Origin: Escherichia phage 121Q
Reading direction: 5' to 3' (one strand)
Sequence record: NC_025447.1
Length of the DNA stretch: 64,000 nt
The notes under the pieces: generated by a model
What the model saw: the letters and a program-made list of their open reading frames with translations, nothing else
What the model was told of the DNA's origin: nothing
Database searches by the model: none
In this document: one piece after another, positions 32,539-61,186 of the stretch
Layout of the letters: the number at the start of each line of letters is the position of its first letter
How positions within the stretch are numbered: the stretch's first letter is position 1
Position numbers and translations under genes: made by a program

Positions 32539-32781
32539 ATGAAAGTACTATCTGAATTAGAAATGCATAATAGATTATACAAGTACTACCATTTACTTAA
32601 ACCTATACAGAGGATTAAGTGTCCCTTTGAAGTGAAACAGGTTTTAATTTATGAGCATAAGTTCTTTGTATCATTAGGTACGAACCATCAAGAGTACTTT
32701 TTGAAGTTGTACTTGATTACATTAATAGATTTAATTCACTATAAAACCAAACAAGCTAATAAAGAGAAATATGAAAACTAA
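32539..32781 (+). CDS. family-2 small protein
   Basis: Start trimmed to ATG 32539; core SLGTNHQEYFL. Confidence 0.6.
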   Translation: MKVLSELEMHNRLYKYYHLLKPIQRIKCPFEVKQVLIYEHKFFVSLGTNHQEYFLKLYLITLIDLIHYKTKQANKEKYEN

Positions 32782-33112
32782 AATTCAACTCAGGGTATAC
32801 ATATCGTATGAAAATATATACGTTAAAAGTAGTCTATGTAAAGATGTAATGGACTACAAAGGTAAACCATTCACAGTTACTTACAGTTTAACAGGAGGTT
32901 TATATATCTCTTTTGCTAATTACGAAAATAATATGTACGAACACATTGACATTGAAGATTTAAGTACTTTATCACCAGAGGAATACTTTCAGGAATCATT
33001 AGTATGGGATTTAGAGTTTCCTATGCCATTAGTACATAAGATGATAGTACTAATGAAAGAATCTAAACAGGAGCCTAATGGTGATTATGAAGAACACATT
33101 ATTGAGTATTAA
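32771..33112 (+). CDS. family-3 protein (EExYFQxS core)
   Basis: Core LSPEEYFQESLVWD. Confidence 0.6.
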   Translation: MKTKIQLRVYISYENIYVKSSLCKDVMDYKGKPFTVTYSLTGGLYISFANYENNMYEHIDIEDLSTLSPEEYFQESLVWDLEFPMPLVHKMIVLMKESKQEPNGDYEEHIIEY

Positions 33113-33144
33113 GAGTTCTGATAGTACTGATAGTACAAATGTTC

Positions 33145-33173
33145 TTGACAGTACTTTTCATTACTGATATAGT
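33145..33173 (+). promoter_or_regulatory. sigma70-like promoter inside array 3
   Basis: TTGACA, 17-nt spacer, TATAGT. Confidence 0.5.
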
Positions 33174-33202
33174 GCACCAACGTTAATCATAGGGTACAGA
33201 TT

Positions 33203-33448
33203 ATGTTAAAATTTTTAAATTTCCTTATCGTCTTGTGTATTGTTCTTGGAATTGCACCGTTTGTATTAGCGTATCTGGATTCAGATGAAATGCAGAAGAT
33301 GAATTGCACAAAGACAGGACAGAGTAGAGAAGAGACGGTTATGATGCCTGTAACGGTTATTGTGAATAACATACCAATTACGAACATGATTCCTACCCTA
33401 ACGACAACGTACCAGTACTCTTGTACAGATGGAGAGAGGTGGAGATGA
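33203..33448 (+). CDS. small membrane protein (81 aa)
   Basis: SD AGGGTACAGATT; hydrophobic N-terminus MLKFLNFLIVLCIVLGIAPFVLAYL. Confidence 0.5.
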   Translation: MLKFLNFLIVLCIVLGIAPFVLAYLDSDEMQKMNCTKTGQSREETVMMPVTVIVNNIPITNMIPTLTTTYQYSCTDGERWR

Positions 33449-33765
33449 AATTTAATATAGCAAAAACATCGAATGTATGTATATTTGGTTATGCAGATGA
33501 GTTAGGTGATATTGACATTCTTTTGTACAAAAAGGATGGTGTTATGCATTTCAAGTACCAGGATGAAGAGGCAGACAATTATCCTTTACCTAATTTAGTA
33601 CAAATGCAGGAAGAGGAATTATTCCAGTACAGCTTAGTATATGACATTGATATTTGCACGATGCCAGTACTAATTAATATTCAAAAAGTGATGCTCGATG
33701 TGTTTGATAGGCTAATACAAGGCACACAAGGAAGAACCATATATGTCAATGTACAAGACAATTAA
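33445..33765 (+). CDS. family-3 protein
   Basis: Start trimmed to ATG 33445 after SD GGAGAGGTGGAG; core QEEELFQYSLVYD. Confidence 0.6.
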   Translation: MKFNIAKTSNVCIFGYADELGDIDILLYKKDGVMHFKYQDEEADNYPLPNLVQMQEEELFQYSLVYDIDICTMPVLINIQKVMLDVFDRLIQGTQGRTIYVNVQDN

Positions 33766-34900: not shown

Positions 34901-35446
34901 ATGAATGATATAGAATTATTAGCACACAAGATTAGTACAATAATGCTTATCCTCAATAACAACCATCCTATATCGAAGATAGATGGAATCCTGAGTCAGA
35001 GGACAGGTGGTAGTTTATATTTGACATTAACAGAGGTTATCGCAAGGAATTACATTGATATTGAAATCGAGAACAGTGATGCATCAGGAAAGGTTGATGT
35101 AGGTGCATTAATCAGTTCAAATCCAGTATCAGCATCCCCATTGACCAAAGGTGTTAGTACAGGATTCGAAGGGTATTTGTGGTACAATACCAATGATGAT
35201 TATTTTATATATCAGCATTCCAATACAAATTATGATGAAGACAAATTTCAGTTCATAGACCCTTATGATGAAGCTGAAGTATTTCAAAAATCATTAATCA
35301 CAAAACCGCATGAGATGATGTATCTAATGTTATTCAGTACAATGCATTTGAATCCATTAATTAAAGGTTTAAAATTTTATATTCAATTGAATTTAGTCCA
35401 TGTAGTTTATGATTTATTAATGCAAGGATATAGTTATGAAGTATAA
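34901..35446 (+). CDS. family-3 protein
   Basis: Core EAEVFQKSLI. Confidence 0.6.
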   Translation: MNDIELLAHKISTIMLILNNNHPISKIDGILSQRTGGSLYLTLTEVIARNYIDIEIENSDASGKVDVGALISSNPVSASPLTKGVSTGFEGYLWYNTNDDYFIYQHSNTNYDEDKFQFIDPYDEAEVFQKSLITKPHEMMYLMLFSTMHLNPLIKGLKFYIQLNLVHVVYDLLMQGYSYEV

Positions 35447-35753
35447 AATGCTTAATACAGTATCAGGGGTATATGTAGAATTAGAATCCGATTATTCAGA
35501 TGGATGGAATTTTATTAAACGACACGATAGAAATACATGGTACATGGCACATTTGGATAATGACGTAATAATAGATAATTTTGTCGATTTTAATACATTA
35601 TCAGAAGAAGAATTTTTCCAAATGCAATTTGTGCTTGATACAAATGGATTTGATTTGCTATTATTAAGGAATATTCAGAAAGCGGTTAATGAATTCATAA
35701 TCCAAAATAATTCAGGTAAAATGGGGATGTTCCATGATCTGGAAGTACAATGA
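35436..35753 (+). CDS. family-3 protein
   Basis: Core SEEEFFQMQFVLD. Confidence 0.6.
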   Translation: MKYKMLNTVSGVYVELESDYSDGWNFIKRHDRNTWYMAHLDNDVIIDNFVDFNTLSEEEFFQMQFVLDTNGFDLLLLRNIQKAVNEFIIQNNSGKMGMFHDLEVQ

Positions 35754-36291
35754 AATTCAGTACACCTACGCTAATGCAATCCTTATGGGACAAAAGTTAG
35801 CTTGTATTGTTGCAGCCTTATATAATGCCCAGAAATATCACAAGCGTCATTTCCACAAATGTATTGGTATTATTCCATCGAAGTACAATACATATATTGC
35901 GTGCACGAGTCATTTTGATAAACGATTCAATACACCTGATACCCCAAATGCCAGTAGTGTTATTGGTCTTTTGGATTTCGCACCTGGTGCTGTTATTGGA
36001 AAGAATGATTTAGAGTACACATGGTATAATAAAAATGCCCCGTTAGTAATGGTAAAATATGATACAGAAACGAATAAAACAATAGAGTACAATACATATA
36101 AATCAGAGGAAGAATTTTTCCAAGGTTCATTGCTTGTGCCAGTGCGTTTGTTGTTTTATAATGTCCTTATTAGTACAGTACACAATAGTCCATTACACAA
36201 GAATCACAAAATTAATTTCAATTTTTGTGCTTATGCGATTGATGGTGTGTATGAGTGTTTAATGGAGGTATTGAGTTATGAAGCTGAATAA
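35734..36291 (+). CDS. family-3 protein
   Basis: Core SEEEFFQGSLLV. Confidence 0.6.
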   Translation: MIWKYNEIQYTYANAILMGQKLACIVAALYNAQKYHKRHFHKCIGIIPSKYNTYIACTSHFDKRFNTPDTPNASSVIGLLDFAPGAVIGKNDLEYTWYNKNAPLVMVKYDTETNKTIEYNTYKSEEEFFQGSLLVPVRLLFYNVLISTVHNSPLHKNHKINFNFCAYAIDGVYECLMEVLSYEAE

Positions 36292-36619
36292 TACATTTGA
36301 TATTAATAAGTTAAGAGAATGGTTTTATAGTATTGAAATTGAAGCCATCCCGTATCATAGATATGAACAATATAATTTAACCAGTATTGATATCAGTGAG
36401 TTGTACGCGTATTATCAAAGTGCATTAGAGATGCATAAGTTATTTTTGAGTACAGATTTTGTTCTAAATTACAATTTTGAGGAATTTAATAATTATAATT
36501 TAGTACAGAAATATGTAGTAGCAAAGTATATGTACCTTCAAGGAATTACAAGTAATTTGGAATTCAATACAGTCCTTGCTTTAGTTGAGGTAATTTTATG
36601 CAGTACATGTATGATTTAG
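36278..36619 (+). CDS. family-3-like protein (degenerate core)
   Basis: ELYAYYQSALEM. Confidence 0.5.
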   Translation: MKLNNTFDINKLREWFYSIEIEAIPYHRYEQYNLTSIDISELYAYYQSALEMHKLFLSTDFVLNYNFEEFNNYNLVQKYVVAKYMYLQGITSNLEFNTVLALVEVILCSTCMI

Positions 36620-37104
36620 AGTTCAGCTTAGATGCTGCATTTAAATATGTTCACAAGATAGAAACAATATACAGTACATTATGTGCAATACAATCAGTAT
36701 CATCTGAGTTTGATGTTGGTGAAAAATATCAGGTATGGAATAATACATTTCTAAACAAAGAACGTTGCTCTACGGGGTTTAATATTTTAACATTTAATCC
36801 CAGCAATTGTTACCCAGAGAAGCATGAACGTTATCCGAATGACGACATGTGGTTTGATTACACAAAAGATGGTGATATGTCATCCCTTGTAGTTCCTGAT
36901 GATTTTAATGCCGAAGATTTAACGGAAGAGTGGTGGTTTCAACAGAATTTAGTACACGATGATATTGATTTATTTTTTTATGTAGTATTTAAAATGCTTT
37001 ACCACAACAATATATTAAAAGATAGTGTGTTTTTTTCATGTCTATATATTGATGATTTGTACAATGAAATCCAAATCAACATTCCCAGCACGCCTGTATC
37101 GTAA
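36598..37104 (+). CDS. family-3 protein
   Basis: Core TEEWWFQQNLVHDD. Confidence 0.6.
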   Translation: MQYMYDLEFSLDAAFKYVHKIETIYSTLCAIQSVSSEFDVGEKYQVWNNTFLNKERCSTGFNILTFNPSNCYPEKHERYPNDDMWFDYTKDGDMSSLVVPDDFNAEDLTEEWWFQQNLVHDDIDLFFYVVFKMLYHNNILKDSVFFSCLYIDDLYNEIQINIPSTPVS

Positions 37105-37129
37105 GATATGGGCTTTTTTCGTTTTGGTA

Positions 37130-37158
37130 TTGACAAAGAAGTGCAAAGCTGTTATCAT
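37130..37158 (+). promoter_or_regulatory. internal sigma70-like promoter in array 3
   Basis: TTGACA, 17-nt spacer, TATCAT; followed by SD AAGGAGAACAT. Confidence 0.5.
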
Positions 37159-37186
37159 GTGTAATCATTTTAAAGGAGAACATATA

Positions 37187-37687
37187 GTGAGTTTCATAAT
37201 CCCAAGTACATACGAAGATGCATCAAGTGCAGTTCATAAGATTCATTATATTTTTAATTTAATTATTAGATCTGCAAAAATTAAAATGTATGCACCTCTT
37301 GTGACAAATAATCGAAATGAAGAAATTTTTATTAGCACAGACAAAATTATTTTTCCATATTTCAATGAAGATAGATTGTGGTTCATACATTTAGCTGCAT
37401 TACAAAAATATAAGATGTCAATTCGTAATAATTTGGTTATACCGTTATATCATCCCGATATTGGAGAGGATGAGTATTTTCAGTACAGCACAGTACACCA
37501 CCATGAAGATATCTTTGCTGCTATGCTTATTGCTAAATTGAACACCGTTGATTTGGAGCAGTACAAATACAATAATAAATCATGTAAGATCATAATCCCT
37601 GCATTCATAGCTCTTTATGATTATGTGGTGCATAACAAAAAAGATGATACATATGCTTTCAATGAAGAGTATTTGAATTTTTTTTAA
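37187..37687 (+). CDS. family-3 protein (probable GTG start)
   Basis: ORF track gives 37025; start moved to GTG 37187 after SD AAGGAG (the next gene uses the same SD with ATG); core GEDEYFQYSTVHH. Confidence 0.5.
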   Translation: MSFIIPSTYEDASSAVHKIHYIFNLIIRSAKIKMYAPLVTNNRNEEIFISTDKIIFPYFNEDRLWFIHLAALQKYKMSIRNNLVIPLYHPDIGEDEYFQYSTVHHHEDIFAAMLIAKLNTVDLEQYKYNNKSCKIIIPAFIALYDYVVHNKKDDTYAFNEEYLNFF

Positions 37688-37696: not shown

Positions 37697-38224
37697 ATGA
37701 GCAGTGACGTGCAGAAATCAATGACATTCAATGAAATTGGTGCATTTAAAGATAAGATCATTGATTGTCTTGAATACATGATTTGTAGTAATATCGAAAG
37801 TATCGAGATATTTAACAAGACAAATCGCTCTTACCATATGATGTACATTGCAAACAATAATGGTATCATTCCATTTATTTCGGATAGTACAATATGGTAC
37901 GCATGTGATACGAAAAAAACCACAATAGGTTTACATTTATTTGAGACACATTATGATCTAATTATTCCTGAACATTGTATGCAAGAAGAAGAATATTTTC
38001 AAATGCAATGTATACATTCACCATTAGTGTTGTTTAGTTTATATATTATACCTTATATCACCAAATGTGTTCATGAGAATAAAGCTCCGTGGAATCATGA
38101 ATTTGTATCGTTGAAGTTATTGTATAATGTATTAGTAGAATATTATGATTACAGGCACAATGGTACAATCAGTGATGTATGGGATTTTGAATCGCTAAGG
38201 GTGAAAACATACACAGGTGAATGA
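37697..38224 (+). CDS. family-3 protein
   Basis: SD AAGGAGAACAT; core QEEEYFQMQCIH. Confidence 0.65.
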   Translation: MSSDVQKSMTFNEIGAFKDKIIDCLEYMICSNIESIEIFNKTNRSYHMMYIANNNGIIPFISDSTIWYACDTKKTTIGLHLFETHYDLIIPEHCMQEEEYFQMQCIHSPLVLFSLYIIPYITKCVHENKAPWNHEFVSLKLLYNVLVEYYDYRHNGTISDVWDFESLRVKTYTGE

Positions 38225-38840
38225 TATGACCAGAATTAAAATGTATGATTTGATGCAGTACAGTAAAATTGCCATTCCAGTGCTTAATAAAGTGCTGGAT
38301 GCATTCATTGCCAAATACCCTGAGAATTCAGTGTTATGTATTCCATTTAGTGTTCCAGATAAAGATGATATATTCCAAGTGAATGTCAGTACACGTGGTA
38401 TTACATTGCAGCAGAAATACATGGATACGGAATATTATGGAATAAAGTTGGATTCAGTACAGGGTTCAAAATCAGCCTATGATTTTTTTGTTCCTAATAA
38501 TATAGAGTCATGGGAAACAAACATTTCAAAGAAAGATGAAAATGATGTTCCTATTAGTGGTGTGTTCAACAATAAAGTTTTTTATTATTACGAAACCGAC
38601 AAATTCCCTGAAGAGTTATATTACAATTCAGAAATGAGTGAGGATATAGATGCATTCATGTTTCAATTATCTTTAGTACATGATATCATTGATGTTCAAG
38701 AGTTAAGAGCAGAAATCAATTTAGCTAAAGAGTTATCGGACATGCTGCCACCGTTTAGTATGCTTTTTTGTGAAGGAGGTTATTTTTCAAAAGAAGTGTT
38801 TGAACATTTCGTAGATGTTGTAAAAGGGTTGGATATATAG
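38217..38840 (+). CDS. family-3 protein
   Basis: Core DIDAFMFQLSLVHD. Confidence 0.6.
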   Translation: MNDMTRIKMYDLMQYSKIAIPVLNKVLDAFIAKYPENSVLCIPFSVPDKDDIFQVNVSTRGITLQQKYMDTEYYGIKLDSVQGSKSAYDFFVPNNIESWETNISKKDENDVPISGVFNNKVFYYYETDKFPEELYYNSEMSEDIDAFMFQLSLVHDIIDVQELRAEINLAKELSDMLPPFSMLFCEGGYFSKEVFEHFVDVVKGLDI

Positions 38841-39045: not shown

Positions 39046-39561
39046 ATGCATCAACACAAGCATCATTCATATGATTTTGCAATTAACATTATGAAGTTCA
39101 TTCGAGCGTTGGAGGATGGGAAGCTTAGTCATAAGTACAGGAAAGAGGGTAACAATTGGTTCAGAAATGATTCCGAGTTCAGTTGTCATAAAATCGTGTA
39201 TAGTAATCAGTACAGTGCCAATTACCTACAAGATGTAGTGATGTGTTTTGAATACGTGTTGCAGTTCAGGGGTTCAATCCAAGATGAGTTGATGGAGAAC
39301 ATGTACATCCGATACCTTCCAATGCTCAAAGATGAAAATGTATTATTAAATTCAATATACCAACGAGTTCGTGAAATTGAGTGCAGGGATATATTAGATA
39401 CAGAAGAATCGTATTTCCAGCATTCCCTGATTTATTCACCTGATTTATTACAGGTACATAATTTGTTTAATACATTACGTCAGAACATCAGTACAGACAT
39501 ATTTTTGTCATTATCGGATTATGATACATTTGTCAAAGATTTAGAGGAAATAGGTTTATGA
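39046..39561 (+). CDS. family-3 protein
   Basis: Core TEESYFQHSLIY. Confidence 0.6.
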   Translation: MHQHKHHSYDFAINIMKFIRALEDGKLSHKYRKEGNNWFRNDSEFSCHKIVYSNQYSANYLQDVVMCFEYVLQFRGSIQDELMENMYIRYLPMLKDENVLLNSIYQRVREIECRDILDTEESYFQHSLIYSPDLLQVHNLFNTLRQNISTDIFLSLSDYDTFVKDLEEIGL

Positions 39562-39899
39562 GTCGATTTTCGGTTTGTGTGGTAAACATAAAAAGTGATG
39601 GTAGTTTAATTGAATTAGATGTATATGATGATGATAATGCATATGGTATTAAAGTACAGGACAATGATGTGCAGTTCAGTTCAAGAACAAATTTTGAAAA
39701 TCCAGTCCAAGTTCCTAATTTCATAGAAGATGAAGCAGCACGTTTCCAATACGAAACGGCATATGACAATGTACATATGCATATTATTATGCAACAAAGT
39801 TTAGTTCAATTAGTTCCTTTGTTCAGACAAAATATATATGTACATGAATTGTCGATCAATGACGTTCGCAGTTCCGTATTGTTCGATACAAATATGTAA
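39558..39899 (+). CDS. family-3 protein
   Basis: Core DEAARFQYETAYD. Confidence 0.55.
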   Translation: MSRFSVCVVNIKSDGSLIELDVYDDDNAYGIKVQDNDVQFSSRTNFENPVQVPNFIEDEAARFQYETAYDNVHMHIIMQQSLVQLVPLFRQNIYVHELSINDVRSSVLFDTNM

Positions 39900-39909
39900 G
39901 GAAAGTACA

Positions 39910-41069: not shown

Positions 41070-41268
41070 AGACGTTTCATTTTGACAGGCCGCAGGGGGG
41101 GTCAAAAAAATTTCCGCTGAAAAACATGCTAAGGTATATGTTTAATATAAAGTTTTATATTGTGTTTTTCAGAGTACAGTTCATGTTTCCTGAAACAAAA
41201 AAAATACCCCGCCACCGAACGTGCTCTTTATATTGGAGTTTACCTTATTAATTATAGTAGAGATTAAG

Positions 41269-41646: not shown

Positions 41647-41870
41647 TGGAATTTGATTTTTTAATATCAGTACATACGGTCAAGGGTGCACCTCAGTACC
41701 TTTGTAATTTAAACAAAGGTGATTTGATTATGGATACAGATACAGAGGTTGTATACAGTTCTAATGTTCTGTGCAAGGAATTTCAGAATTCGAAAATGCT
41801 TGAGTTATTGTGCATTGCTGATTGTAATATTCTGTACAAATTCAGTACTAATCTGAAGGAGATTTTATGA
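41643..41870 (+). CDS. hypothetical protein (75 aa); N-terminus paralogous to 42235
   Basis: MEFDFLISVHTVKG...CNLNKGDL as in the 42235 protein. Confidence 0.55.
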   Translation: MMEFDFLISVHTVKGAPQYLCNLNKGDLIMDTDTEVVYSSNVLCKEFQNSKMLELLCIADCNILYKFSTNLKEIL

Positions 41871-43451: not shown

Positions 43452-43452
43452 A

Positions 43453-53315: not shown

Positions 53316-53826
53316 AGATGATATTCTAATTAGACTAATTAATAGTTTAATAAAGTTCTCAAATAATGATGTCGATACATACAAAGTGGGGGATATTGAA
53401 TTTAAATCATTTGGTATGTACGGTGAGGATAAAACATATTATGCGTCAATGAAATTTCAAGATTTTCACGAGATGTTAATATCGTTATCATATGAAGATG
53501 TTGATCCAAGATGGAGTTCCAGTATTTCACTATCGAGAATGGTAATTCGTAGTAAGCATCGTTATATTTCGTCAAAGAATACTCCTAACTTGATTAATAT
53601 TGTGTTGAATGAAAATACAAATCCCCTATCTAAACATGATATCGTACCGTTAACCGATGAAGTTCTTTTTCAATTGAGTACCATTTGTGATGAAGATGTG
53701 ATATCATGTATGAAAATTTATGAGAAGGTTGGGAGTGATATTCCCATGAACTATTACCTAACTATAGATGGAACGTACCTTCGAGATGAGGTTCTAGCGT
53801 ACATTGACAGTGTTTTACCAAAATAA
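53308..53826 (+). CDS. family-3 protein
   Basis: Start trimmed to ATG 53308; core TDEVLFQLSTICD. Confidence 0.55.
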   Translation: MDKDDILIRLINSLIKFSNNDVDTYKVGDIEFKSFGMYGEDKTYYASMKFQDFHEMLISLSYEDVDPRWSSSISLSRMVIRSKHRYISSKNTPNLINIVLNENTNPLSKHDIVPLTDEVLFQLSTICDEDVISCMKIYEKVGSDIPMNYYLTIDGTYLRDEVLAYIDSVLPK

Positions 53827-53847
53827 AGACCCGTATGGGTCTTTTTG
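53827..53847 (+). terminator. Rho-independent terminator
   Basis: AGACCC-GTAT-GGGTCT followed by TTTTTG. Confidence 0.65.
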
Positions 53848-53858
53848 TGTTTATGGCT

Positions 53859-53886
53859 TTACAAGAGCATTCAGGTGTGTTATACT
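53859..53886 (+). promoter_or_regulatory. promoter-like element
   Basis: TTACAA, 16-nt spacer, TATACT. Confidence 0.4.
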
Positions 53887-53913: not shown

Positions 53914-54480
53914 ATGAGTACTGAATTAATTAAAGAAGTCACATTACTTCTGAAGCATTGTTTTAAGTTCATTCCTGATACTGGCTCACGCCAGTACATT
54001 AAAGTTAATGAGAAATATAACATCAATATCCTTGTATCTGAAACTGCGAGCAGTTATGCTAACATTGAGTTGGATTCTGAAGAAAAATATACAGTATTAC
54101 AAATCATAGCAGATGTACAACGTAAACAAGATTATCGTTCTTCATTTTACAACGATTATCTGTGCGTTTGCTCAAACTTCAGTGAGAATAAAATTGTGTA
54201 TAAGAATTTATACACACATGAAGTGATTGATACATATAATTATAAAATTTCATCTGATGAATACAATGTTCTAATGTTCAACGCAAACCTTTTGTATGAT
54301 GCCAGTACTGTACGCTGTTTAGAGTTAGCATATAAAATTCCAAAGATCATGGAAAGAAAAGATTTGATTCACTTTAAAACAATTTTAAAATACAGTACAA
54401 AAGAATTAGAGGATTTAGTACAGGCTCTTAAGAATTTCATTAATGAACATGTACCTGTTAAATTCGAGGATGCACAATGA
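53914..54480 (+). CDS. hypothetical protein (188 aa), family-3-like
   Basis: Start trimmed to ATG 53914 after SD GGAGGAAT. Confidence 0.55.
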   Translation: MSTELIKEVTLLLKHCFKFIPDTGSRQYIKVNEKYNINILVSETASSYANIELDSEEKYTVLQIIADVQRKQDYRSSFYNDYLCVCSNFSENKIVYKNLYTHEVIDTYNYKISSDEYNVLMFNANLLYDASTVRCLELAYKIPKIMERKDLIHFKTILKYSTKELEDLVQALKNFINEHVPVKFEDAQ

Positions 54481-55061
54481 ACCATATCAGAACTAAAATT
54501 TTGAGACTCATGCATGACATTGCAGAACTTTCAGAGATTCATGACATTACGGAAATTGTTGAATTTGATAATTATCGACTGAAAATTGAAAACAAATCCA
54601 AACATCGTTTTGGTTCAGTTCAGTTGGATGTATATAAAACTTATGAATTTTCTAAAAAAATTAAAAGTTCATGGGATACGATTACTATGTACATTCGCAC
54701 ATCCAGAAATCGTGAACGTATTGGTTCTATTTCTTCTAATATGGTATTTGCGAATGCATTACATGAAAAAATGAATAAAATTGTAGAATCTGATTTCAGT
54801 GAAGATGATGGTTTTATTGGGTTGGATGTTCCACCAGAATTAGACCAAAGTGAAGATATTCGAGATGCATTCATTTTCCAGAAATCATTGTTGGACAATT
54901 ACAAAGAATTCGAGTACTTAATGCTTTGTTACGATACTGCAAAAATTCTTGATTGTGGTGAACTAGTTATGTACAATGATTTTATCAATTGCAAGACTGA
55001 TGTTCTGAATACACTACTTCAAAATATAGAATCTGTTAAGGAAAAATATGAACGCTTATAG
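54477..55061 (+). CDS. family-3 protein
   Basis: Core RDAFIFQKSLLDN. Confidence 0.6.
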   Translation: MNHIRTKILRLMHDIAELSEIHDITEIVEFDNYRLKIENKSKHRFGSVQLDVYKTYEFSKKIKSSWDTITMYIRTSRNRERIGSISSNMVFANALHEKMNKIVESDFSEDDGFIGLDVPPELDQSEDIRDAFIFQKSLLDNYKEFEYLMLCYDTAKILDCGELVMYNDFINCKTDVLNTLLQNIESVKEKYERL

Positions 55062-55629
55062 TTATATGACAGAACGCCATCAGTTATTATATGATATCAG
55101 TAAAAAAATGCTATCAATTGTTGGTAGTGCGAAAGAAATTGAAAAACAATATCTCATCCGTGATGTAGCAATTTCATCTAAATGTTGGTCAAATGAATAT
55201 TACGACCACGGTATTCTTACTATTTCTGGGGCTAGAAATATTTGTATTGTAAAAAATAAAAGTAAAAGTAATGAAGAGTGTGAGATTAGAACCGATATAC
55301 AAATTAAGGATGATGGAAGTTTTTCACACCACCCATTCCATATTAGTACTATTGGTGTTTTATATAATATTAAAGTACTATTCGGTGATGAAGAGTATGT
55401 GTTAAAAGCTATCAATCCAGATTCAAGTACAGTTGAAGAAGAACTGTTCCAGATGAGCACTGTTATACCTGAAGAGGTTCTTAGTACTGTTGTTTTTTGT
55501 AGTTTAATTTATCATACATACAAAAAGAACCAATTCGATTTCCACATTTTAGGAACGTACATCTTCAATACTTTGAATGTTGATCGTTTAAAAGCATTAA
55601 ATGCAGCAATGGATAAGGTGCTACAATGA
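55048..55629 (+). CDS. family-3 protein
   Basis: Core VEEELFQMSTVIP. Confidence 0.6.
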   Translation: MNAYSYMTERHQLLYDISKKMLSIVGSAKEIEKQYLIRDVAISSKCWSNEYYDHGILTISGARNICIVKNKSKSNEECEIRTDIQIKDDGSFSHHPFHISTIGVLYNIKVLFGDEEYVLKAINPDSSTVEEELFQMSTVIPEEVLSTVVFCSLIYHTYKKNQFDFHILGTYIFNTLNVDRLKALNAAMDKVLQ

Positions 55630-56054
55630 CAAGAGATGATTGTTTGTACATATGGGATATAATTGAAACTACACTTTCAAATCCAGAAAATTATAAAACA
55701 AAAAAAAGACAACGACACAAAATATGGATAGATTTGTTCGTTGAGGGCATACACGCAGTGACTATTTGGGATTCACCGAGGGCATCAGCATCTACTCTAT
55801 TGGACAATGAATGCATTGATTGCATTAATTCCACTTTTCATCTCTACGGTACTACATTTTTCGGTACATTTCTGGATATTGAAAGTAAAGATGATATTGA
55901 TTCACTTGCGTTACAATACCAAGTACTGTATAATACTAAATTAATTTACGATTTAGTACTAGCTTCTTATGTGTATAAATTAATGATGAAATATAATCAT
56001 ATTTCTGTTTCAGTTTATACTAAGGATATTCTTTCATTAAGAGACAAAACATGA
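55626..56054 (+). CDS. hypothetical protein (142 aa)
   Basis: Coupled ORF; core degenerate. Confidence 0.5.
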   Translation: MTRDDCLYIWDIIETTLSNPENYKTKKRQRHKIWIDLFVEGIHAVTIWDSPRASASTLLDNECIDCINSTFHLYGTTFFGTFLDIESKDDIDSLALQYQVLYNTKLIYDLVLASYVYKLMMKYNHISVSVYTKDILSLRDKT

Positions 56055-56560
56055 GTTTATTAAATGCACGCGAATTAGTTGAGATGTATGAGATTTTGTC
56101 TTCATATAAAAATTCTCATGGAGATGTGATTCTCGACAAAAAGTTCCATGTCAGTGTTGAACATATATCAAATATAGATATGATTTCTTTGGTGGAAAGT
56201 AATAAGTCAGGTCTTGAACGCGATATCATGCGTTTGATTTATATTCCCAAACCATCATATACTAATGATAGTTCAATTAGTAATGAGACATTCATGTATA
56301 GTCCTGGTACGGATTCTACTATAGTATCGCTGTCCAATAAATCAATGGGTACTTTCCAATTCATCTATACCAGTACTGATAACATTGAAGAAATTGAATT
56401 TCAAAACAATACATTAAGTCCATGTAGTAGTGTTATAACCTTTATGTCATATCTATGGTCAACTAAAACAAGTGCTGTTGTATATAGTTCAAATTATACA
56501 CAAGATAGTATTGTTGAATCATATAAAGTTCTAAAGGAATACTATGAAAATAACAAATGA
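56051..56560 (+). CDS. family-3 protein
   Basis: Core IEEIEFQNNTLS. Confidence 0.55.
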   Translation: MSLLNARELVEMYEILSSYKNSHGDVILDKKFHVSVEHISNIDMISLVESNKSGLERDIMRLIYIPKPSYTNDSSISNETFMYSPGTDSTIVSLSNKSMGTFQFIYTSTDNIEEIEFQNNTLSPCSSVITFMSYLWSTKTSAVVYSSNYTQDSIVESYKVLKEYYENNK

Positions 56561-57125
56561 TTTTATTAAAAGTGTAGTACACCCTATGCTTAGTATTATG
56601 AAAAAAATACAGAATCTACCGGAAGATAACGATTACAAGTTTAATCGTTTTGATTCAGATGTGTTTTGTATTGAAATTGAAATTAATAACAATCGCAATT
56701 TACATTTAAAATTCAAAGAATCGTCAAGTCCGTACTACAACTTTGATATGAATTTTAAAATAGATACTGACATTGAAGAAAACGTAATATCAAATCATAC
56801 TAGCAAAAATGGTTTTATGCATAGAACTACTATGTACAATAATAAAAATAGTATTATATCTAAATGGAATCATCAATTCACTAAAATTTGTGAAATTGAA
56901 TATAGTGATTTTGGTGAAGAGAATTACTTTCAGTTAAGTACAATTCATGAACTTCCACCGTATGATTATGTTAAAACATGGTTTGATATTCATAATATAA
57001 TTGATGATGCAATCAAACTTCCTTTTGGTGTGTCAATATCATATACTGCTCCTAAAACATTTGTTTTTACTGAAGATATGATTATGAAAAAGATATGGGC
57101 AATTATCCCACTTATGATGGATTAA
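56544..57125 (+). CDS. family-3 protein
   Basis: Core GEENYFQLSTIHE. Confidence 0.6.
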   Translation: MKITNDFIKSVVHPMLSIMKKIQNLPEDNDYKFNRFDSDVFCIEIEINNNRNLHLKFKESSSPYYNFDMNFKIDTDIEENVISNHTSKNGFMHRTTMYNNKNSIISKWNHQFTKICEIEYSDFGEENYFQLSTIHELPPYDYVKTWFDIHNIIDDAIKLPFGVSISYTAPKTFVFTEDMIMKKIWAIIPLMMD

Positions 57126-57130
57126 ATTCG

Positions 57131-57157
57131 TACCAGGGGTTGACTCTGGTATTTTTG
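57131..57157 (+). terminator. terminator-like hairpin
   Basis: TACCAG..CTGGTA followed by TTTTTG. Confidence 0.45.
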
Positions 57158-57186: not shown

Positions 57187-57738
57187 ATGAACTACAATCA
57201 TGATCTTTTTACATTATGTGCATCCAAATGTGTTGATGGATGGACAGATAAAATCAATACCATAATTCATCGATATCTGGTCTTTAGTTCTCGTGCACGA
57301 AGTGAGGGGGCTATGGATTTCAAATATACACTATCTATTGATGGTGTAACTATCCATGCAGACGAAGAACGTCTGAGCATTAATTTGTATGATTCATGTG
57401 TATTTGCTATTCACCAAAAGATGGGGAAAGGATGGGGTTGTAATAACATTAACTCAAAAGCTATCTTTTGGGTTGGTCACCACCAGACAGTACTTGATCC
57501 TTCAATCAAATCTAATCTTTTATCCGATAATATGGTTTATGATTTATTGTACTCCGAAGAACAACATTTTCAGTTAAGTACATTACATGATCTGGCACAG
57601 TACGAGGATTGTTACAAAACATTAGAACTATGCCATTCCCTTGAACTTAAAGATAAATTGATACAAGTTTACCCTTCATTCTTTCATGAAGAAGTACAAA
57701 GTACACTAGATCATATTTTATATGGATACGATAAATGA
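57187..57738 (+). CDS. family-3 protein
   Basis: SD AAAGGAGAAT; core SEEQHFQLSTLHD. Confidence 0.65.
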   Translation: MNYNHDLFTLCASKCVDGWTDKINTIIHRYLVFSSRARSEGAMDFKYTLSIDGVTIHADEERLSINLYDSCVFAIHQKMGKGWGCNNINSKAIFWVGHHQTVLDPSIKSNLLSDNMVYDLLYSEEQHFQLSTLHDLAQYEDCYKTLELCHSLELKDKLIQVYPSFFHEEVQSTLDHILYGYDK

Positions 57739-58337
57739 GAAAAAGTTATCAAGAAGCTATTGACTTAATTCGTGAAGTTATCAAGGTGGCTCCTGCTGCT
57801 ATTGAGTTCAAGAAGTCCATATACAAGAAGTATGGTTCAATGTCGAGTATGTGCTTTCAAAAGAAACGTAGAGCATTCACTACCCAGTACTGGAATGATT
57901 CTATCATCCTGAGCAATGAGACTCAGCGTATTTTAACACTAGAATCTGAACCTAATGAGTACGGGGAAGGGAACATTTGTGTACCTGATTATGATGAAAT
58001 TAACTTCAACTGCGGTGATTTTGAAACAACATTATTACTTCATGAGGGTTATCCAGAAGGTGATGTATTAGCTGAGTACAATCCAAAAACTAAAATTCTC
58101 AAAAGAGGAATCCAGTTCACTATTAATAACAAAGATGATGTTCAAGCAGCACTGATGCAACTGAGTACAAGTGAACCTATCACTATTAGTGTAGAAGAGT
58201 TATGGGGAATTATTTCAGTACTCAATGAGTGCTACAAAGTAAAATCATTGCGTAAACACAGCATTATATTACATACCAATATGGCAAATATAAAATGTAA
58301 GCACATTCAAGAAATGGTGGTTCCAGATGGACTTTAA
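57735..58337 (+). CDS. family-3 protein
   Basis: Core QAALMQLSTSEP. Confidence 0.55.
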   Translation: MRKSYQEAIDLIREVIKVAPAAIEFKKSIYKKYGSMSSMCFQKKRRAFTTQYWNDSIILSNETQRILTLESEPNEYGEGNICVPDYDEINFNCGDFETTLLLHEGYPEGDVLAEYNPKTKILKRGIQFTINNKDDVQAALMQLSTSEPITISVEELWGIISVLNECYKVKSLRKHSIILHTNMANIKCKHIQEMVVPDGL

Positions 58338-58911
58338 AGAAATTGAAAGTAAATTAAAGTACTTCAAAGATATCAAACTTCTTTGGAAAAAGTATAAAGT
58401 TGATTACAATTTCAGTGATGATGAGACAATAAAATACATTGAGATTAATATCAAAATCAAGTTCAAGAATAATAATTATGGTGAAGTAACCTTAAATCAT
58501 ACTGGTATATCACTCAAGGACTATGATGGTACAACACTCGCATATTTTGACTTCACACCAGAACCAGGTGAAACACTACTTAGTGAGATAAATTCCTATG
58601 ACATGGAAGTGTTCGGCGGGAATCCGTTACTGTTCCGACTTTCTGAAGAGTGGAGTGAAGAGTACTACACTTACAAAGATGGTGTAGTACTTGACATTCA
58701 TGGAGAAGTTGTGAATGACTTGGAAGAACGTTTGTTCCAAGAATTGTGTGTTTCAAATACTTCATATGCATACAATCATATCCTTGACATGTTTGATTTA
58801 TATAGTAAAATAGATGCTGAAATGAAGGCACATGGTATTCATTACCTTACAATTAACGACTATGCTCAACTCGAAACCGCTGTGAAAGCATTGACTAAAG
58901 TACTGAAATAG
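58327..58911 (+). CDS. family-3 protein
   Basis: Core LEERLFQELCVSN. Confidence 0.55.
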   Translation: MDFKEIESKLKYFKDIKLLWKKYKVDYNFSDDETIKYIEINIKIKFKNNNYGEVTLNHTGISLKDYDGTTLAYFDFTPEPGETLLSEINSYDMEVFGGNPLLFRLSEEWSEEYYTYKDGVVLDIHGEVVNDLEERLFQELCVSNTSYAYNHILDMFDLYSKIDAEMKAHGIHYLTINDYAQLETAVKALTKVLK

Positions 58912-58920
58912 GAATGAAAT

Positions 58921-59334
58921 ATGAAACTGTATCATGCGAGTACTGTAAAAATTGATAACTTTTATATCCCGTATGGTGGTCTTCATATGGGAGGTAAACA
59001 CAGTGCTTTGGAAGCTGCATTACGCAAGCTGAGAAGCCCACTGAACGTAGTAGACGCATGTACAGTATACTTGCATACCTTAGAAGTTGATGTTGATAAC
59101 GTGCTTCTGTGTGAAGATTTAGGCAGTGATGATGAGTGGCGTTCACTTATTGAGAATTGCACTGCTCAAGGTTATGATGCTGTTCAGTACAAAAATGATT
59201 ACGAGCCAGACAATGTTCCTAGCTTTATGATTTGGGATGCATCTAAAGTTCGCATCATTGAAGTTGATGCTATGCATATGGATGAAGCTGAAATGATTAT
59301 CGAAGATTTTCTTGATGAATATGAAGGTGTATAA
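58921..59334 (+). CDS. hypothetical protein (137 aa), not family 3
   Basis: SD AATAGGAATGAAAT; ATG 58921. Confidence 0.6.
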   Translation: MKLYHASTVKIDNFYIPYGGLHMGGKHSALEAALRKLRSPLNVVDACTVYLHTLEVDVDNVLLCEDLGSDDEWRSLIENCTAQGYDAVQYKNDYEPDNVPSFMIWDASKVRIIEVDAMHMDEAEMIIEDFLDEYEGV

Positions 59335-59870
59335 TGTCTGACCCGATGGTAGCACTGGCACGTACAAAATTACTATTAAAGATTGGTGAGATTTTTACGG
59401 TTCTTCTGTCCAATAATATTGATATCACTGAGCTAGATATTAAGCAACCGTGGGAAGTGACTATGTTCTCGGCGTTCCACCGATTGTCATATAAAGGTGA
59501 AAGTGTTCTTGATTTTAACCCTAAAGCAAAATTCATAGATTATGCTGCGTTGTACAGAGAGTTGCACCGAAATATTTATTCCGGTTGTATAACCAATAAC
59601 TTCAAAGAAATTAAAGTTCAAACTGCATCACATGAGTTCAATGATTTACTTTATCCAGAATTTAATCTAACGGAAGAATTACTCTTTCAGTACTCGTTAA
59701 TTCTCACAAATCTCGAAACGCTAGAGTACTACAAAGAGTTAGTAGATATTTTTATGAATACACGACTTTCAAAAGATATTGTGATATTCTGGTATACAGA
59801 GCATGTTACGGAGGAATTGCTTACTGAATTTCTTCTAAATATGACAGCTATAAAGGAGAAGTTATGTTAG
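59334..59870 (+). CDS. family-3 protein
   Basis: Core TEELLFQYSLIL. Confidence 0.6.
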   Translation: MSDPMVALARTKLLLKIGEIFTVLLSNNIDITELDIKQPWEVTMFSAFHRLSYKGESVLDFNPKAKFIDYAALYRELHRNIYSGCITNNFKEIKVQTASHEFNDLLYPEFNLTEELLFQYSLILTNLETLEYYKELVDIFMNTRLSKDIVIFWYTEHVTEELLTEFLLNMTAIKEKLC

Positions 59871-60337
59871 ATATTTTAGGAAACATCGATACTGCAAATT
59901 ATTTTATCCAGGACGCACTGTTCAATACAGTTCAACAAGGATTAGAAGTTCGTCATAACGTTTACCAAGGTGATGGTTATTTCGTTGATATTGTTGAGGC
60001 ACGAAAGAATACGTTTAATGTTAACATTACAACACTGGGTAGACAGAACATTGCACGAATTTTAGTAAGTAAAGATGAAATTGTATTGAGATACAGTGCT
60101 AAGTTTATGTTGACTTATAAGAAAAAAACTGATATGTTCAGTACTAATTTATTTGATGAACCATTTGACCTTGAAGATATTGAAGCTACTTTCTTTACTC
60201 AAAGTACTATGGTAAAATACACTGATGTTCAATTTTCTGCTGATGTAATGTCAGAAACATTACAAATGATCAAGGTATTATTTTATGCATTTGAGCAATT
60301 TAGAGAAGAAAGAAACAAGGTTAACAACCACAGATGA
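59864..60337 (+). CDS. family-3 protein
   Basis: Core EATFFTQSTMV. Confidence 0.55.
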   Translation: MLDILGNIDTANYFIQDALFNTVQQGLEVRHNVYQGDGYFVDIVEARKNTFNVNITTLGRQNIARILVSKDEIVLRYSAKFMLTYKKKTDMFSTNLFDEPFDLEDIEATFFTQSTMVKYTDVQFSADVMSETLQMIKVLFYAFEQFREERNKVNNHR

Positions 60338-60698
60338 ACTAATAGAGGCGATCACTAAGGAGTCAAAATACCACAAAGGGATTCGTCTATATTTTATAGA
60401 TATTGGTTCAATGGAAGGCATATACATTTATGGTTCACAATCTTTATCTTATGATGTAATGCCAAAAAAACATGTAAAAATCTTTTTAGGTTCAAATAAA
60501 AAAACTTTCTTGACAATTAATGATAAAAACGTTATTATGAATTCGTTGGGTCATGATAAGGTGGAAATTGATCTAAACACGCTTGAGGATATTGATTTTT
60601 TTCAATACGAGTGTTTAGGTGTTGACTTACATGGCATTAGTAGCGATAAGATAAAATCATTAATCAAATATTTCGAAGGTGTTCATAAATGTATCTAA
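60285..60698 (+). CDS. family-3 protein (start uncertain)
   Basis: Core EDIDFFQYECLGVD; the 53-nt overlap with the upstream gene suggests a later start. Confidence 0.5.
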   Translation: MHLSNLEKKETRLTTTDELIEAITKESKYHKGIRLYFIDIGSMEGIYIYGSQSLSYDVMPKKHVKIFLGSNKKTFLTINDKNVIMNSLGHDKVEIDLNTLEDIDFFQYECLGVDLHGISSDKIKSLIKYFEGVHKCI

Positions 60699-61186
60699 CT
60701 AAATCAATGAAAAATTCATTTGATAAAATCAAGAGTTGTCTTGATGGGGAAAATATTACAAGTGTTACACAAACTGCTGACCAAATTCAAAGCAGTTCAA
60801 ATGATTGTACTGTTATTTTAGGTTTACATAGTCTACGTTTATCAATAGTAAATAATATTGACAACACTGCTATTGTAATCACACCATGCCATATTCAAAA
60901 TGAGAATGGTGTATATCTTCATCACATGGGAACAGTATTTCATATTTTCAATACAAACGAAAACATTGTTAAGGAATACAAATCTCTTAATATTGATTCA
61001 GGTGAATTATTTCAAATGAGTACTTTGTACTCATGTAATTTTACAGATACTTCATGTATTTTGCCATTTTTCTTGGAAATTATTAAGAAAATGGAAAATT
61101 TAAAACGTGAATACAATAAAGAAATGGTTCCTGAAGCTATATTAAATATTACTAATGCTATAGAGAAGTATAATGCAGTGACTTAA
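60689..61186 (+). CDS. family-3 protein
   Basis: Core DSGELFQMSTLYS. Confidence 0.6.
   Translation: MYLTKSMKNSFDKIKSCLDGENITSVTQTADQIQSSSNDCTVILGLHSLRLSIVNNIDNTAIVITPCHIQNENGVYLHHMGTVFHIFNTNENIVKEYKSLNIDSGELFQMSTLYSCNFTDTSCILPFFLEIIKKMENLKREYNKEMVPEAILNITNAIEKYNAVT

Follow-up and report, generated by a model that had tools for sequence, protein, structure and literature searches.

An old and selectively maintained tandem protein family with a Phe-Gln motif in a Rak2-like jumbo coliphage

Escherichia phage 121Q, an Asteriusvirus and Rak2-like jumbo coliphage with a genome of 350 kb, harbors a large array of tandem paralogs within the window, the 64,000-nucleotide stretch of DNA that was analysed. 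The paralogs are all homologous and are predicted to adopt a single fold, and the family that they form is real, old and under selection. The family is specific to the lineage of Rak2-like jumbo phages, namely Asteriusvirus, Alcyoneusvirus and uncultured relatives.

Membership and layout of the array

The gene map, composed of non-nested plus-strand open reading frames (ORFs) of at least 50 aa, places 67 genes in the array (Table 1). Iterated profile-HMM searches assign 39 of these to the family, together with one outlier elsewhere in the window, at E-values of 1e-10 to 1e-35, and all 39 array members have Phe-Gln at the aligned position. A strict form of the motif, [FYWLM][FYLW]Q.[STA][STLC][VILM], is found in 32 of the 67 genes, as against a mean of 0.18 and a maximum of 3 in 1000 shuffles of the proteins, and in none of the 95 plus-strand genes of the window outside the array. 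The initial annotation had described one tandem family with a shared motif, and both counts bear this out. Around ten more ORFs (46343-60698, and one at 39558) have the motif region as their top profile-profile match, weakly (best E 6.6e-4, probability 27%); the earlier figure of at least about 45 paralogs was slightly generous, as 40 members are secure and the total may reach about 50. The family is thus real, but the interval is not purely that family, since four of the genes there (33743, 33928, 46857, 47053) come from a family of small ORFs unrelated to this one and about 20 other ORFs have no detectable relation to it.

The genes overlap or abut at 51 of the 66 junctions, most commonly by -4 (ATGA), and 19 of the 39 member starts follow a Shine-Dalgarno sequence matched over 4 nt or more, compared with 7% at random positions, in line with their being real genes. 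Paralog arrays, the first of which lies 68 bp past the inner edge of the terminal repeat, are read away from the repeat. In the relative fEgEco12, the termini have been verified by restriction digests (PMC13070987).

Table 1. Coordinates of the array, its members and the associated signals (E, E-value)
Feature	Sequence	Position	Strand	Evidence or remark
Array		32771..61186	+	67 head-to-tail genes, 39 of the family (18.6 kb of 28.4 kb)
Direct terminal repeat, 20-kb (context)		7458..27638	+	mapped to both ends of G17 record
Member, short form	LSPEEYFQESLVWD	32771..33112	+	HMM E 1e-18
Member, short form	MQEEELFQYSLVYD	33421..33765	+	HMM E 3.6e-19; TTG start from first-start rule, tentative
Member	YDEAEVFQKSLITK	34901..35446	+	E 4.3e-28
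Member, short form	LSEEEFFQMQFVLD, Q in place of S	35436..35753	+	E 1.9e-16
Member	KSEEEFFQGSLLVP	35734..36291	+	E 4.3e-29
Member	LTEEWWFQQNLVHD	36598..37104	+	E 4.2e-24
Member	IGEDEYFQYSTVHH	37025..37687	+	E 3.4e-17; PHROG match begins at residue 45; real start probably near 37157, beyond terminator and promoter
Member	MQEEEYFQMQCIHS	37697..38224	+	E 3.3e-24; reciprocal ortholog in EC.P1 not found
Member	DIDAFMFQLSLVHD	38217..38840	+	E 9.6e-21
Member	DTEESYFQHSLIYS	39046..39561	+	E 1.3e-24
Member	LSDESLFQYSTMYD	39838..40461	+	E 9.7e-19
Member, short form	LDDAALFQEALVFD	41221..41646	+	E 1e-19; start probably 3' of the GTG
Member, short form	LSEEEFFQESTVWN	41867..42235	+	E 5e-18
Member, short form	MDAGELFQAALVFD	42235..42591	+	E 7.3e-21; AlphaFold model pLDDT 79.9, pTM 0.78
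Member, short form	LDDGELFQEALVFD	42588..42947	+	E 3.1e-17
Member, long form	DSEEYYFQQSTVYD	42957..43451	+	E 1.3e-35; AlphaFold model pLDDT 87.8, pTM 0.84
Member	GSEDYYFQQSTIYN	43453..43923	+	E 1.1e-27
Member	GTEEYYFQQSLIFN	43920..44360	+	E 2.4e-29
Member	DSEEYYFQNSTIYN	44363..44851	+	E 1.6e-35; 61% identity to 42957
Member	NSEEYYFQNSTVYD	44829..45281	+	E 3.1e-34
Member, short form	EHESFIFQESLVWD	45278..45592	+	E 2.2e-10
Member	STEEGYFQGSTVYE	45897..46346	+	E 1.2e-22
Member	NTEENIFQNSVLHD	47234..47794	+	E 8.7e-19
Member, short form	MQEDELFQESLVWD	48393..48755	+	E 2.6e-16
Member	YGEEEMFQYSTVFN	48679..49122	+	E 2.8e-22; TTG start tentative
Member, short form	LDEGELFQESLVFN	49101..49442	+	E 8.5e-14
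Member	LNQEYYFQLSLLFP	49402..49986	+	E 6.8e-31
Member	TEEEFFQYSTVYP	50046..50522	+	E 1.4e-27
Member	MSEEMYFQGSCIHD	50519..51013	+	E 3.3e-26
Member, short form	LSEEELFQQSTIST	50979..51341	+	E 8.8e-18
Member, short form	MTPDELFQYSLVFP	51325..51738	+	E 6.7e-18
Member	ISEESYFQNSLIYT	51726..52229	+	E 7.4e-29
Member	DLESAMFQLSLIHN	52752..53315	+	E 3.8e-24
Member	LTDEVLFQLSTICD	53260..53826	+	E 1.3e-20
Member	TVEEELFQMSTVIP	55048..55629	+	E 8.1e-25
Member	FGEENYFQLSTIHE	56544..57125	+	E 7.3e-24
Member	YSEEQHFQLSTLHD	57187..57738	+	E 1e-18
Member	LTEELLFQYSLILT	59334..59870	+	E 1.2e-13
Member	IDSGELFQMSTLYS	60689..61186	+	E 4.8e-11
Outlying member	LQEEELFMYSTVID, M in place of Q	4811..5482	+	E 2.5e-16, second HMM round only; across terminal repeat from array; annotated as gene G17_00061 in G17
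Probable degenerate member	DLEERLFQELCVS	58327..58911	+	hhalign E 6.6e-4 at motif region; EC.P1 ortholog matches family HMM at 2.7e-5
Possible degenerate member	IRDAFIFQKSLLD	54477..55061	+	HMM E 0.008; hhalign E 0.012 at motif
Possible degenerate member	AFDEQCFQLSCTD	46343..46879	+	HMM E 0.059; motif where expected
Possible degenerate member	IEDEAARFQYETAYD	39558..39899	+	HMM E 0.037; hhalign E 0.021
Possible degenerate member	NIEEIEFQNNTLS	56051..56560	+	hhalign E 0.0042 at motif region
Possible degenerate member	LEDIDFFQYECLG	60285..60698	+	hhalign E 0.0051 at motif region
Possible degenerate member	DDVQAALMQLSTS	57735..58337	+	hhalign E 0.028 at motif region
Sigma-70-type promoter	TTGACA-17-TATAGT with TG	33145..33173	+	in one of five gaps > 40 bp
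Intrinsic-terminator-like hairpin with T run		37092..37113	+	invariant in EC.P1 and phAPEC6
Promoter	TTGACA-17-TATCAT with TG	37130..37158	+	-35 hexamer invariant in three phages
Weaker promoter-like site	TTGACA-18-AAAAAT	41082..41111	+	sequence
Perfect promoter	TTGACA-18-TATAAT with TG	49983..50012	+	sequence
Terminator-like hairpin		53825..53844	+	conserved
Promoter	TTTACA-17-TATACT with TG	53858..53886	+	sequence
Terminator-like hairpin		57130..57152	+	sequence

The motif and the predicted fold

The members are soluble, mostly acidic, single-domain proteins of about 105-220 aa, with a median pairwise identity of 16%. The pI is below 6 in 35 of the 40 (median 4.78; neighboring genes 7.9), and membrane segments are absent from the members except for two artefacts of over-long start calls. 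In its corrected form the motif reads [ST]-[ED]-[ED]-x-[YLF]-F-Q-x-S-[TL]-[VIL]-[YHFW]-[DN], and it is found 40-75 residues, mostly 44-62, from the C-terminus. Within four genomes, Phe is kept in 140 of 141 members and Gln in 139. Synonymous codons vary freely at these invariant positions (TTT 24, TTC 15; CAG 23, CAA 16), with Ser encoded by AGY and TCN alike, and selection therefore acts at the level of the protein.

Long and short forms are predicted to share an alpha+beta core, in which the motif helix comes after an antiparallel beta-sheet and is followed by a long helix and then a closing strand; to this core the long forms add an extra N-terminal and an extra C-terminal helix. That the members adopt one fold is supported by HMM matches that span most of each member and by two AlphaFold models (Table 1) with an identical order of elements. 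The first core helix is predicted to begin, N-capped, with the motif, in which Phe-Gln is nearly invariant and Ser conserved. The variable positions of this helix are 116 and 120, i.e. i and i+4, and we infer burial or exposure of Phe and Gln from helical periodicity only. No convincing match to the fold was found in the PDB, there were zero matches in Pfam, NCBIfam and PADLOC, and the PHROGs entries for the members are all of unknown function. The searches thus assigned the members to no known structural or other family, and no likeness to characterised anti-defence or takeover proteins was found.

Promoters, selection and age

Most of the few intergenic gaps hold near-consensus sigma-70-type promoters, generally with an extended -10, and these conserved elements would divide the array into operons. 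The array promoters are 88-94% conserved across phages whose flanking genes have a protein identity of 58-71%; a 91-bp alignment across the gap at 49983..50012, where the flanking proteins fall in this range, shows 94% conservation among three phages. Early expression is suggested by the promoter sequences together with the position in the genome, as has also been proposed for the RpoD-promoter region of phage CBB (PMC5259590).

Among the members, dN/dS ranges from 0.07 to 0.49, with a median of 0.24. The sheet region (dN 0.27, omega 0.36) evolves faster than the motif and helices (dN 0.13-0.15, omega 0.20-0.26), in keeping with the initial description of a short core that hardly varies within otherwise divergent sequences. 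At the resolution of pairwise dN/dS there is no sign of an arms race, with net purifying selection everywhere.

Phage EC.P1 has 43 copies, and 60-70% of members find their best match in another genome. The expansion is ancient rather than recent, since Klebsiella phage RaK2 has at least 27 copies in the syntenic place with a colinear gene order and an uncultured relative has 31 copies in 20.6 kb. It largely predates the Asteriusvirus/Alcyoneusvirus split. Even the genes at 42957-45281, once taken for recent duplicates, share only 30-61% amino-acid identity (best nucleotide match 70.7%), and each has its own EC.P1 ortholog.

Possible roles of the family

We tentatively regard the members as early cytoplasmic host-binding proteins, with a fixed scaffold and a faster-evolving sheet, that would constitute a host-takeover or anti-defence repertoire. 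Host sigma-70 RNA polymerase would transcribe the array early, in six or seven operons that start just inside the terminal repeat, and the products would act in the cytoplasm by one-to-one binding of host macromolecules. The helical part would provide the fixed scaffold, the faster-evolving sheet and loops the member-specific binding surface, and the array would have arisen via old tandem duplications, each copy being maintained. The acidity of the members may point to basic or nucleic-acid-binding targets, and the stable orthology between genera would favor conserved host targets over strain-variable ones. An effector or anti-defence arsenal, as first suggested, would fit proteins that are acidic and missing from virions and whose genes lie just inside the terminal repeat behind conserved sigma-70-type promoters. 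However, anti-defence genes tend to be patchy, so that colinear orthology this stable between genera is unusual for them, and the near-absolute invariance of Gln is more than a scaffold usually needs.

This invariance might instead reflect an exposed F-Q helix that docks onto one shared partner, either a protein of the phage itself or a host hub, for instance a protease, a chaperone or RNA polymerase, while the variable sheet brings in different targets. F, Q and S are conserved far above other core positions at so low a pairwise identity, the conserved polar E, E, Q, S and D/N are gathered around one helix-loop, and constant and variable parts are clearly separated. Nevertheless, we consider a docking role unlikely, as the conserved positions extend roughly two thirds of the way around the helix, leaving only the two variable ones, and with the hydrophobic T/L-V/I-aromatic stretch after them look like a helix packed on the sheet.

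The E-E/F-Q/S cluster could also form a catalytic site or a pocket for a small molecule, as in a sponge for a nucleotide signal. Ligand pockets typically contain invariant aromatic and polar residues, and known phage sponge proteins are similar in size to the members. This is distinctly improbable, given that no enzyme or sponge family matches by sequence or fold, that the same pocket forty times per genome would be redundant, and that conservation of the Glu positions reaches only 74-77%.

It has also been suggested that tandem duplication is a ratchet-like route to jumbo genomes (Hua et al. 2017, PMC5646251, who mention an array of > 30 genes in 121Q), with which the phAPEC6 authors concur. 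The array could then be filler, with duplicates of little function per copy fixed as a larger capsid tolerates or needs extra DNA. We hold this to be highly improbable: omega is below 0.5 in every tested copy, positional orthologs at 20-30% identity persist between genera and show no pseudogenisation, F and Q show zero changes in 36 ortholog pairs, and the promoters are conserved.

Finally, the notion that the proteins are packaged and cut at a site of the TEV/3C type (E-x-x-Y-F-Q / x-S), or that the motif is a capsid-targeting signal, is scarcely credible and largely refuted. The likeness to E-x-x-Y-x-Q/(G,S) (e.g. EEMYFQGS, EENYFQLS) is superficial, the motif is a predicted helix within a compact domain (pLDDT 96-97, the highest in the model), and the residue after Gln varies (Y, L, E, Q, M or N in most members, also G) with the conserved Ser one position further. 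Mass spectrometry of the phAPEC6 virion identified 62 proteins, none of them from gp404c-gp466c, the same array in that phage, and the sole protease listed for that virion is the prohead protease gp227c. We know of no glutamine-specific 3C-like protease in phages.

Of these readings, the one with a shared docking partner may be likened to the poxvirus ankyrin/PRANC or BTB-Kelch families, in that targets are recruited to a common partner.

Membership, motif and predicted fold of family A

Family A, the small acidic paralogs that share a Phe-Gln motif and lie head-to-tail at 32771-61186, is an unusually large, ancient and motif-anchored jumbo-phage paralog family, tandem arrays as such being already known. 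Counting every + strand ORF of 50 aa or more that is not nested in another, the interval contains 67 genes, which overlap or abut at 51 of 66 junctions, most commonly with an overlap of 4 nt, and only five gaps exceed 40 bp. A strict form of the motif is found in 32 of these genes and in 0 of the 95 + strand genes that lie outside the interval; shuffled proteins gave a mean of 0.18 and a maximum of 3 in 1000. A profile-HMM seeded with the 32 genes converged after two rounds on 40 ORFs (E 1e-10 to 1e-35), 39 in the interval and one outlying at 4811-5482, and its matches cover the greater part of every member. In the alignment, each of the 39 members within the array carries Phe-Gln at the motif, and pairwise identity within the family has a median of 16% and a maximum of 61%. 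Around ten more ORFs harbor a degenerate F-Q-like stretch in the right place, their best profile-profile alignment falling at the motif region with weak scores. The rest of the interval consists of four copies of family B, a second tandem family, and ORFs without detectable relation.

Some individual ORFs stand out. A 75-aa ORF at 41643-41870 looks like a truncated duplication remnant, its 5' portion being a copy of the corresponding portion of 42235-42591 (83% over 89 nt); the Sharanji GenBank record is arbitrarily cut near this position. The ORF at 58921-59334 (137 aa) is a non-member inside the array, with 89% identity to EC.P1 and an omega (dN/dS) of 0.17; it belongs to phrog_11632, of unknown function in PHROGs, and has no Pfam match. 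Directly after the promoter at 33145, an 81-aa ORF (33203-33448) with a hydrophobic N-terminus (MLKFLNFLIVLCIVLGIAPFVLAYL) may encode a small membrane protein located among the array genes. The outlying family A member stands alone among genes of family C, a third tandem family, on the far side of the terminal repeat.

The motif was examined over 141 members pooled from the window, EC.P1, RaK2 and one uncultured contig. It comprises S/T at position 113 (88/141), Glu at 114 (105/141) and 115 (109/141), Y/L/F at 117 (108/141), Phe at 118 (140/141), Gln at 119 (139/141), Ser at 121 (121/141), T/L at 122 (131/141) and V/I/L at 123 (129/141), followed by an aromatic residue or His at 124 and D/N at 125, with 116 and 120 variable. 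Codons at the invariant positions are mixed (TTT 24 and TTC 15; CAG 23 and CAA 16; Ser AGY 23 and TCN 10), and since synonymous codons vary, the constraint is on the protein; a DNA- or RNA-level cause of the motif is thus ruled out.

In the AlphaFold2 model of a long form, 42957-43448 (pLDDT 87.8, pTM 0.84), the chain opens with a helix at 3-22 and six strands lying between residues 35 and 102. After a short helix come the motif helix at 114-121, another helix (126-140), one strand (146-149) and a last helix (151-158). The motif helix (EEYYFQQS) is the most confident part of the model, with pLDDT 96-97. The short form 42235-42588 (pLDDT 79.9, pTM 0.78) is modeled with five strands and a closing strand, between which lie the motif helix (residues 65-74) and a long helix (83-99); this is the predicted long-form core minus its terminal helices. 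The 40 HMM members, together with the same predicted core in these two divergent sequences, bear out the proposal of the initial annotation that the array holds one homologous family with one predicted fold. In the models the motif is an N-capped helix, in which Ser/Thr and two acidic residues precede the aromatics. As the variable positions 116 and 120 lie one helical turn apart, the predicted helix suggests a single exposed stripe, with the remainder packed against the sheet. The proteins are acidic, with a pI below 6 in 35/40 members (median 4.78) and net charges down to -26; the median pI of neighboring genes is 7.9. Membrane segments were absent from family A except for two artefacts of over-long start calls.

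The best-supported reading of these proteins is that they would be early-expressed, cytoplasmic, non-structural binders forming a host-takeover or anti-defence repertoire, in which a fixed scaffold would carry a faster-evolving sheet surface for binding. Their acidity suggests that the targets may be basic or nucleic-acid-binding, and the stable orthology between genera suggests that host targets may be conserved. The main rival explanation has every member docking onto a single common partner through the exposed part of the invariant helix, a reading that would fit the almost absolute conservation of a polar residue, Gln, within it.

Selection and descent among jumbo phages

Reciprocal orthologs in EC.P1 are found for 36 family A members, with amino-acid identities of 45-97%. 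Across these 36 pairs dN/dS ranges from 0.07 to 0.49 with a median of 0.24, similar to the 0.20 of the region's non-family genes. By structural element, dN is 0.27 and omega 0.36 in the sheet region, compared with a dN of 0.13-0.15 and an omega of 0.20-0.26 in the N-terminal helix, the motif and the C-terminal helices; F and Q show zero differences between orthologs. Compared across related phages, the array has 43 members in EC.P1, at least 27 in the Klebsiella phage RaK2 (Alcyoneusvirus), where the syntenic array precedes dam, rnlA and pseT, and 31 within 20.6 kb of an uncultured contig that lacks nucleotide similarity. The idea that the array is genome filler is contradicted both by this selection, which holds even at the highest ratio, and by the retention of orthologs across species.

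For 60-70% of members the best BLAST match lies in another genome. Gene order is colinear, RaK2 positions 27428, 31327, 34108 and 35563 corresponding to window positions 52752, 56544, 59334 and 60689, and only 12 short segments show nucleotide self-similarity within the array, reaching at most 70.7% over 485 nt. Taken together, these observations indicate that the expansion is old and that each copy has been maintained. The recent duplicates proposed in the initial annotation are therefore not borne out, and recent duplication or gene conversion can be ruled out; the few gains and losses between species show a slow birth-and-death process. The Salmonella phage SD-1_S14 (OR699183.1) looked like a natural deletion series, but was set aside as evidence of dispensability because it is annotated as a large number of tiny CDS fragments. 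The Salmonella 'SD-' Asteriusvirus records, of 310-326 kb, span the array only piecewise and with many CDSs of 90-150 bp, and the gaps in these records look like assembly or frameshift problems rather than true deletions.

Sequence searches of Pfam, NCBIfam, PADLOC and the PDB with family A returned nothing above noise, no characterized anti-defence or defence family matched it in sequence or fold, and in PHROGs it is spread over at least 8 groups, every one of unknown function. A profile search of 1.84 billion cluster representatives recovered only 141 proteins, of 65-210 aa, 103 of them with the motif; all named relatives are hypothetical proteins from E. coli jumbo phages or E. coli assemblies (~350-kb contigs). 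In tblastn searches with single members and the HMM consensus, all matches fell in jumbo phages of Escherichia and Klebsiella, apart from four Asteriusvirus records whose host of isolation was Salmonella. Foldseek against viral models (BFVD) returned only uncharacterized Rak2-like phage proteins, the matches to proteins of GAP32, Serratia BF and Yersinia fHe-Yen9-03 being too weak to be counted, and a search by RnlA synteny for the GAP32 or CBB locus was swamped by T4-like matches.

Genome setting, expression and virion status

The source phage, a Rak2-like jumbo myovirus infecting E. coli, belongs to Asteriusvirus. The segment 42000-52000 matches phages SHEFM2K, G17 and Sharanji at 97.1% identity over its full length, and the 34 records matched are without exception jumbo phages of Escherichia or Salmonella, ~310-385 kb in size. 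The terminal-repeat length reported for Sharanji equals that mapped here, and the termini of the relative fEgEco12 were confirmed via restriction digests (PMC13070987). From ~8 kb to 64 kb every gene lies on the + strand, with a positive GC skew; transcription therefore proceeds from the repeat through family B (27706-32781) into 32771-61186. No tRNA or Rfam element was found.

Features of the window (coordinates in window positions)
Feature	Position	Strand	Remarks
Family C	3787-7194	+	third tandem family; 10-12 ORFs of ~60 aa, start M-[HY]-K-E-[YF]-Y
Outlying family A member	4811-5482		basic, pI 8.95; F-M replaces F-Q; recruited in second HMM round only
Direct terminal repeat	~7458-27638		20.7 kb, ~20.2 kb here; maps to both ends of G17 record, which has repeat twice
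Family B	27706-32781, 33743-34194, 46857-47244		second tandem family; 26 ORFs, 63-97 aa
Family A array	32771-61186	+	head-to-tail
Promoter, sigma-70-type	33145	+
Terminator-like hairpin	37092		followed by promoter 37130
Promoter, sigma-70-type	37130	+	after terminator 37092
Promoter, perfect	49983	+	TTGACA-18-TATAAT, 12/12 with TG
Terminator-like hairpin	53825		followed by promoter 53858
Promoter, sigma-70-type	53858	+	after terminator 53825
Terminator-like hairpin	57130

The terminal repeat itself carries ~45 small genes on the + strand, of which the majority each have a promoter and a terminator of their own; it also contains perfect TTGACA-16/17-TATAAT sequences in 14 intergenic gaps, and an intergenic module of ~90-100 bp repeated ~24 times. 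Family B begins 68 bp past the repeat, behind a promoter-like site at 27678, and is characterized by the motif [FL]L-G-T-[NDQ]-[YH]-Q-E, and family C directly precedes the right-hand repeat copy in the packaged genome; they correspond to phrog_4148 and phrog_11711, respectively, both of unknown function in PHROGs. That families B and C are truncated relatives of family A is ruled out by an hhalign probability of <1%. At 1-3291 on the - strand, three paralogous RCC1-like genes, annotated as 'regulator of chromosome condensation' or 'DNA condensation protein', form part of a larger tandem set, and phAPEC6 proteins with the same annotation (gp003-gp010, gp549, gp551) were detected in the virion by mass spectrometry.

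Within the array, most of the few intergenic gaps harbor terminator-like hairpins and sigma-70-type promoters, mostly of the extended -10 kind. Alignments spanning the gaps at 49987-50045 and 53827-53901 are 94% and 88% conserved among three phages, and the genes flanking them share just 58-71% protein identity. Sigma-70-type promoters with both hexamers, conserved in relatives, are thus present as in early genes, and the authors of the CBB study drew the same 'early, host takeover' inference for a region of RpoD promoters (PMC5259590). The orthologous array of phAPEC6 (gp404c-gp466c) contributes 0 of 62 virion proteins identified by mass spectrometry, a survey that low-abundance proteins could escape (PMC7247149). 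Family A is therefore likely to be expressed early and to be non-virion, and the suggestion that its motif acts as a packaging signal is contradicted by the same proteome.

The motif had also been likened to a 3C/TEV-type protease site, E-x-x-Y-x-Q/(G,S), a likeness that resides in the letters E-E-x-Y-F-Q and is contradicted on several counts. In both models the motif is predicted as a buried-looking helix, of high confidence in the long form, and not as an extended accessible segment. The small P1' residue (G/S/A) that such proteases require is not conserved, P1' among the 141 members being Y (41), L (22), E (19), Q (16), M (11), N (10) or G (7), among others, and the conserved Ser is at P2', not P1'. 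No cognate Gln-specific protease occurs in the window, the one protease entered in the phAPEC6 virion table is the prohead protease, and no sign of processing was seen.

Significance and relation to known systems

Rak2-like phages devote ~5% of a 350-kb genome to family A (18.6 kb here), and more with the neighboring paralog arrays, and have kept it for as long as the Escherichia and Klebsiella phage lineages have been separate. Nonetheless, every member is annotated as a 'hypothetical protein'. Recognition of the family turns ~40 ORFans per genome into one testable problem, with F, Q and S as clear targets for point mutants. If the members do bind host proteins, they would represent a ready-made set of inhibitors for enterobacterial proteins, and a bacterial-virus case of a mode of multigene-family evolution documented so far mainly in large eukaryotic viruses.

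The literature on Rak2-like phages mentions the paralogs in single lines, with no described function and no transcriptome found. Hua et al. (PMC5646251) devote one sentence to tandem paralog arrays in 121Q and phage G, and the studies of CBB (PMC5259590), phAPEC6 and RaK2 likewise note such arrays in single sentences. The arrays of Hua et al. come from the same phage group, are probably in part the same genes, lie head-to-tail and were attributed to tandem duplication; their 'very similar genes' suit family B better, because the median identity in family A is only 16%. These earlier papers lack a family definition, motif, fold, selection analysis, map position and function, and no description of family A, its motif, fold or map position was encountered in the literature searched.

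Among large dsDNA viruses, the MGF360/505 families of ASFV and the ankyrin/PRANC and Kelch families of poxviruses comprise dozens of divergent paralogs near the genome ends. They are non-structural, combine a conserved scaffold or motif with a variable part, act in host interaction, and display a marked 'accordion' turnover in copy number. Family A appears analogous in its divergent paralogs near the ends, its non-structural character and its scaffold with a variable part; however, there is no homology, and its array is largely colinear between genera. It is conceivable, if rather unlikely, that the array is the phage counterpart of these terminal multigene families: ~40 hard-wired binders on a previously undescribed alpha+beta scaffold, whose invariant E-E-x-Y-F-Q-x-S helix would dock all of them to one host or phage hub while the variable sheet picks differing targets. 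Were this so, a single motif would link dozens of host proteins to one common takeover machinery.

In other phages, the T5 pre-early region, the SPO1 host-takeover module and the T4 early ORFan clusters place early takeover genes near or inside terminal repeats. Like family A, they consist of small, non-essential-looking genes with strong sigma-70-type promoters near the terminal redundancy, and the family A array similarly precedes early genes of T4-like type, namely dam here and rnlA and pseT in the syntenic RaK2 region. In those regions, however, the genes are unrelated and single, whereas family A is 40 copies of one fold. Other folds that place helices on a beta-sheet platform, namely the RNA polymerase beta lobe, the polo-box, the MHC-like platform and Mam33/p32, were also compared; for Mam33/p32, family A showed neither Pfam membership nor a strong fold match. 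Finally, divergent arrays of immunity genes are found at polymorphic-toxin loci, for example the T7SS immunity strings (PMC9484751) and the SUKH and Imm families. Like family A, they are rows of non-identical small alpha+beta paralogs, each of which is presumed to neutralize a different partner by binding.
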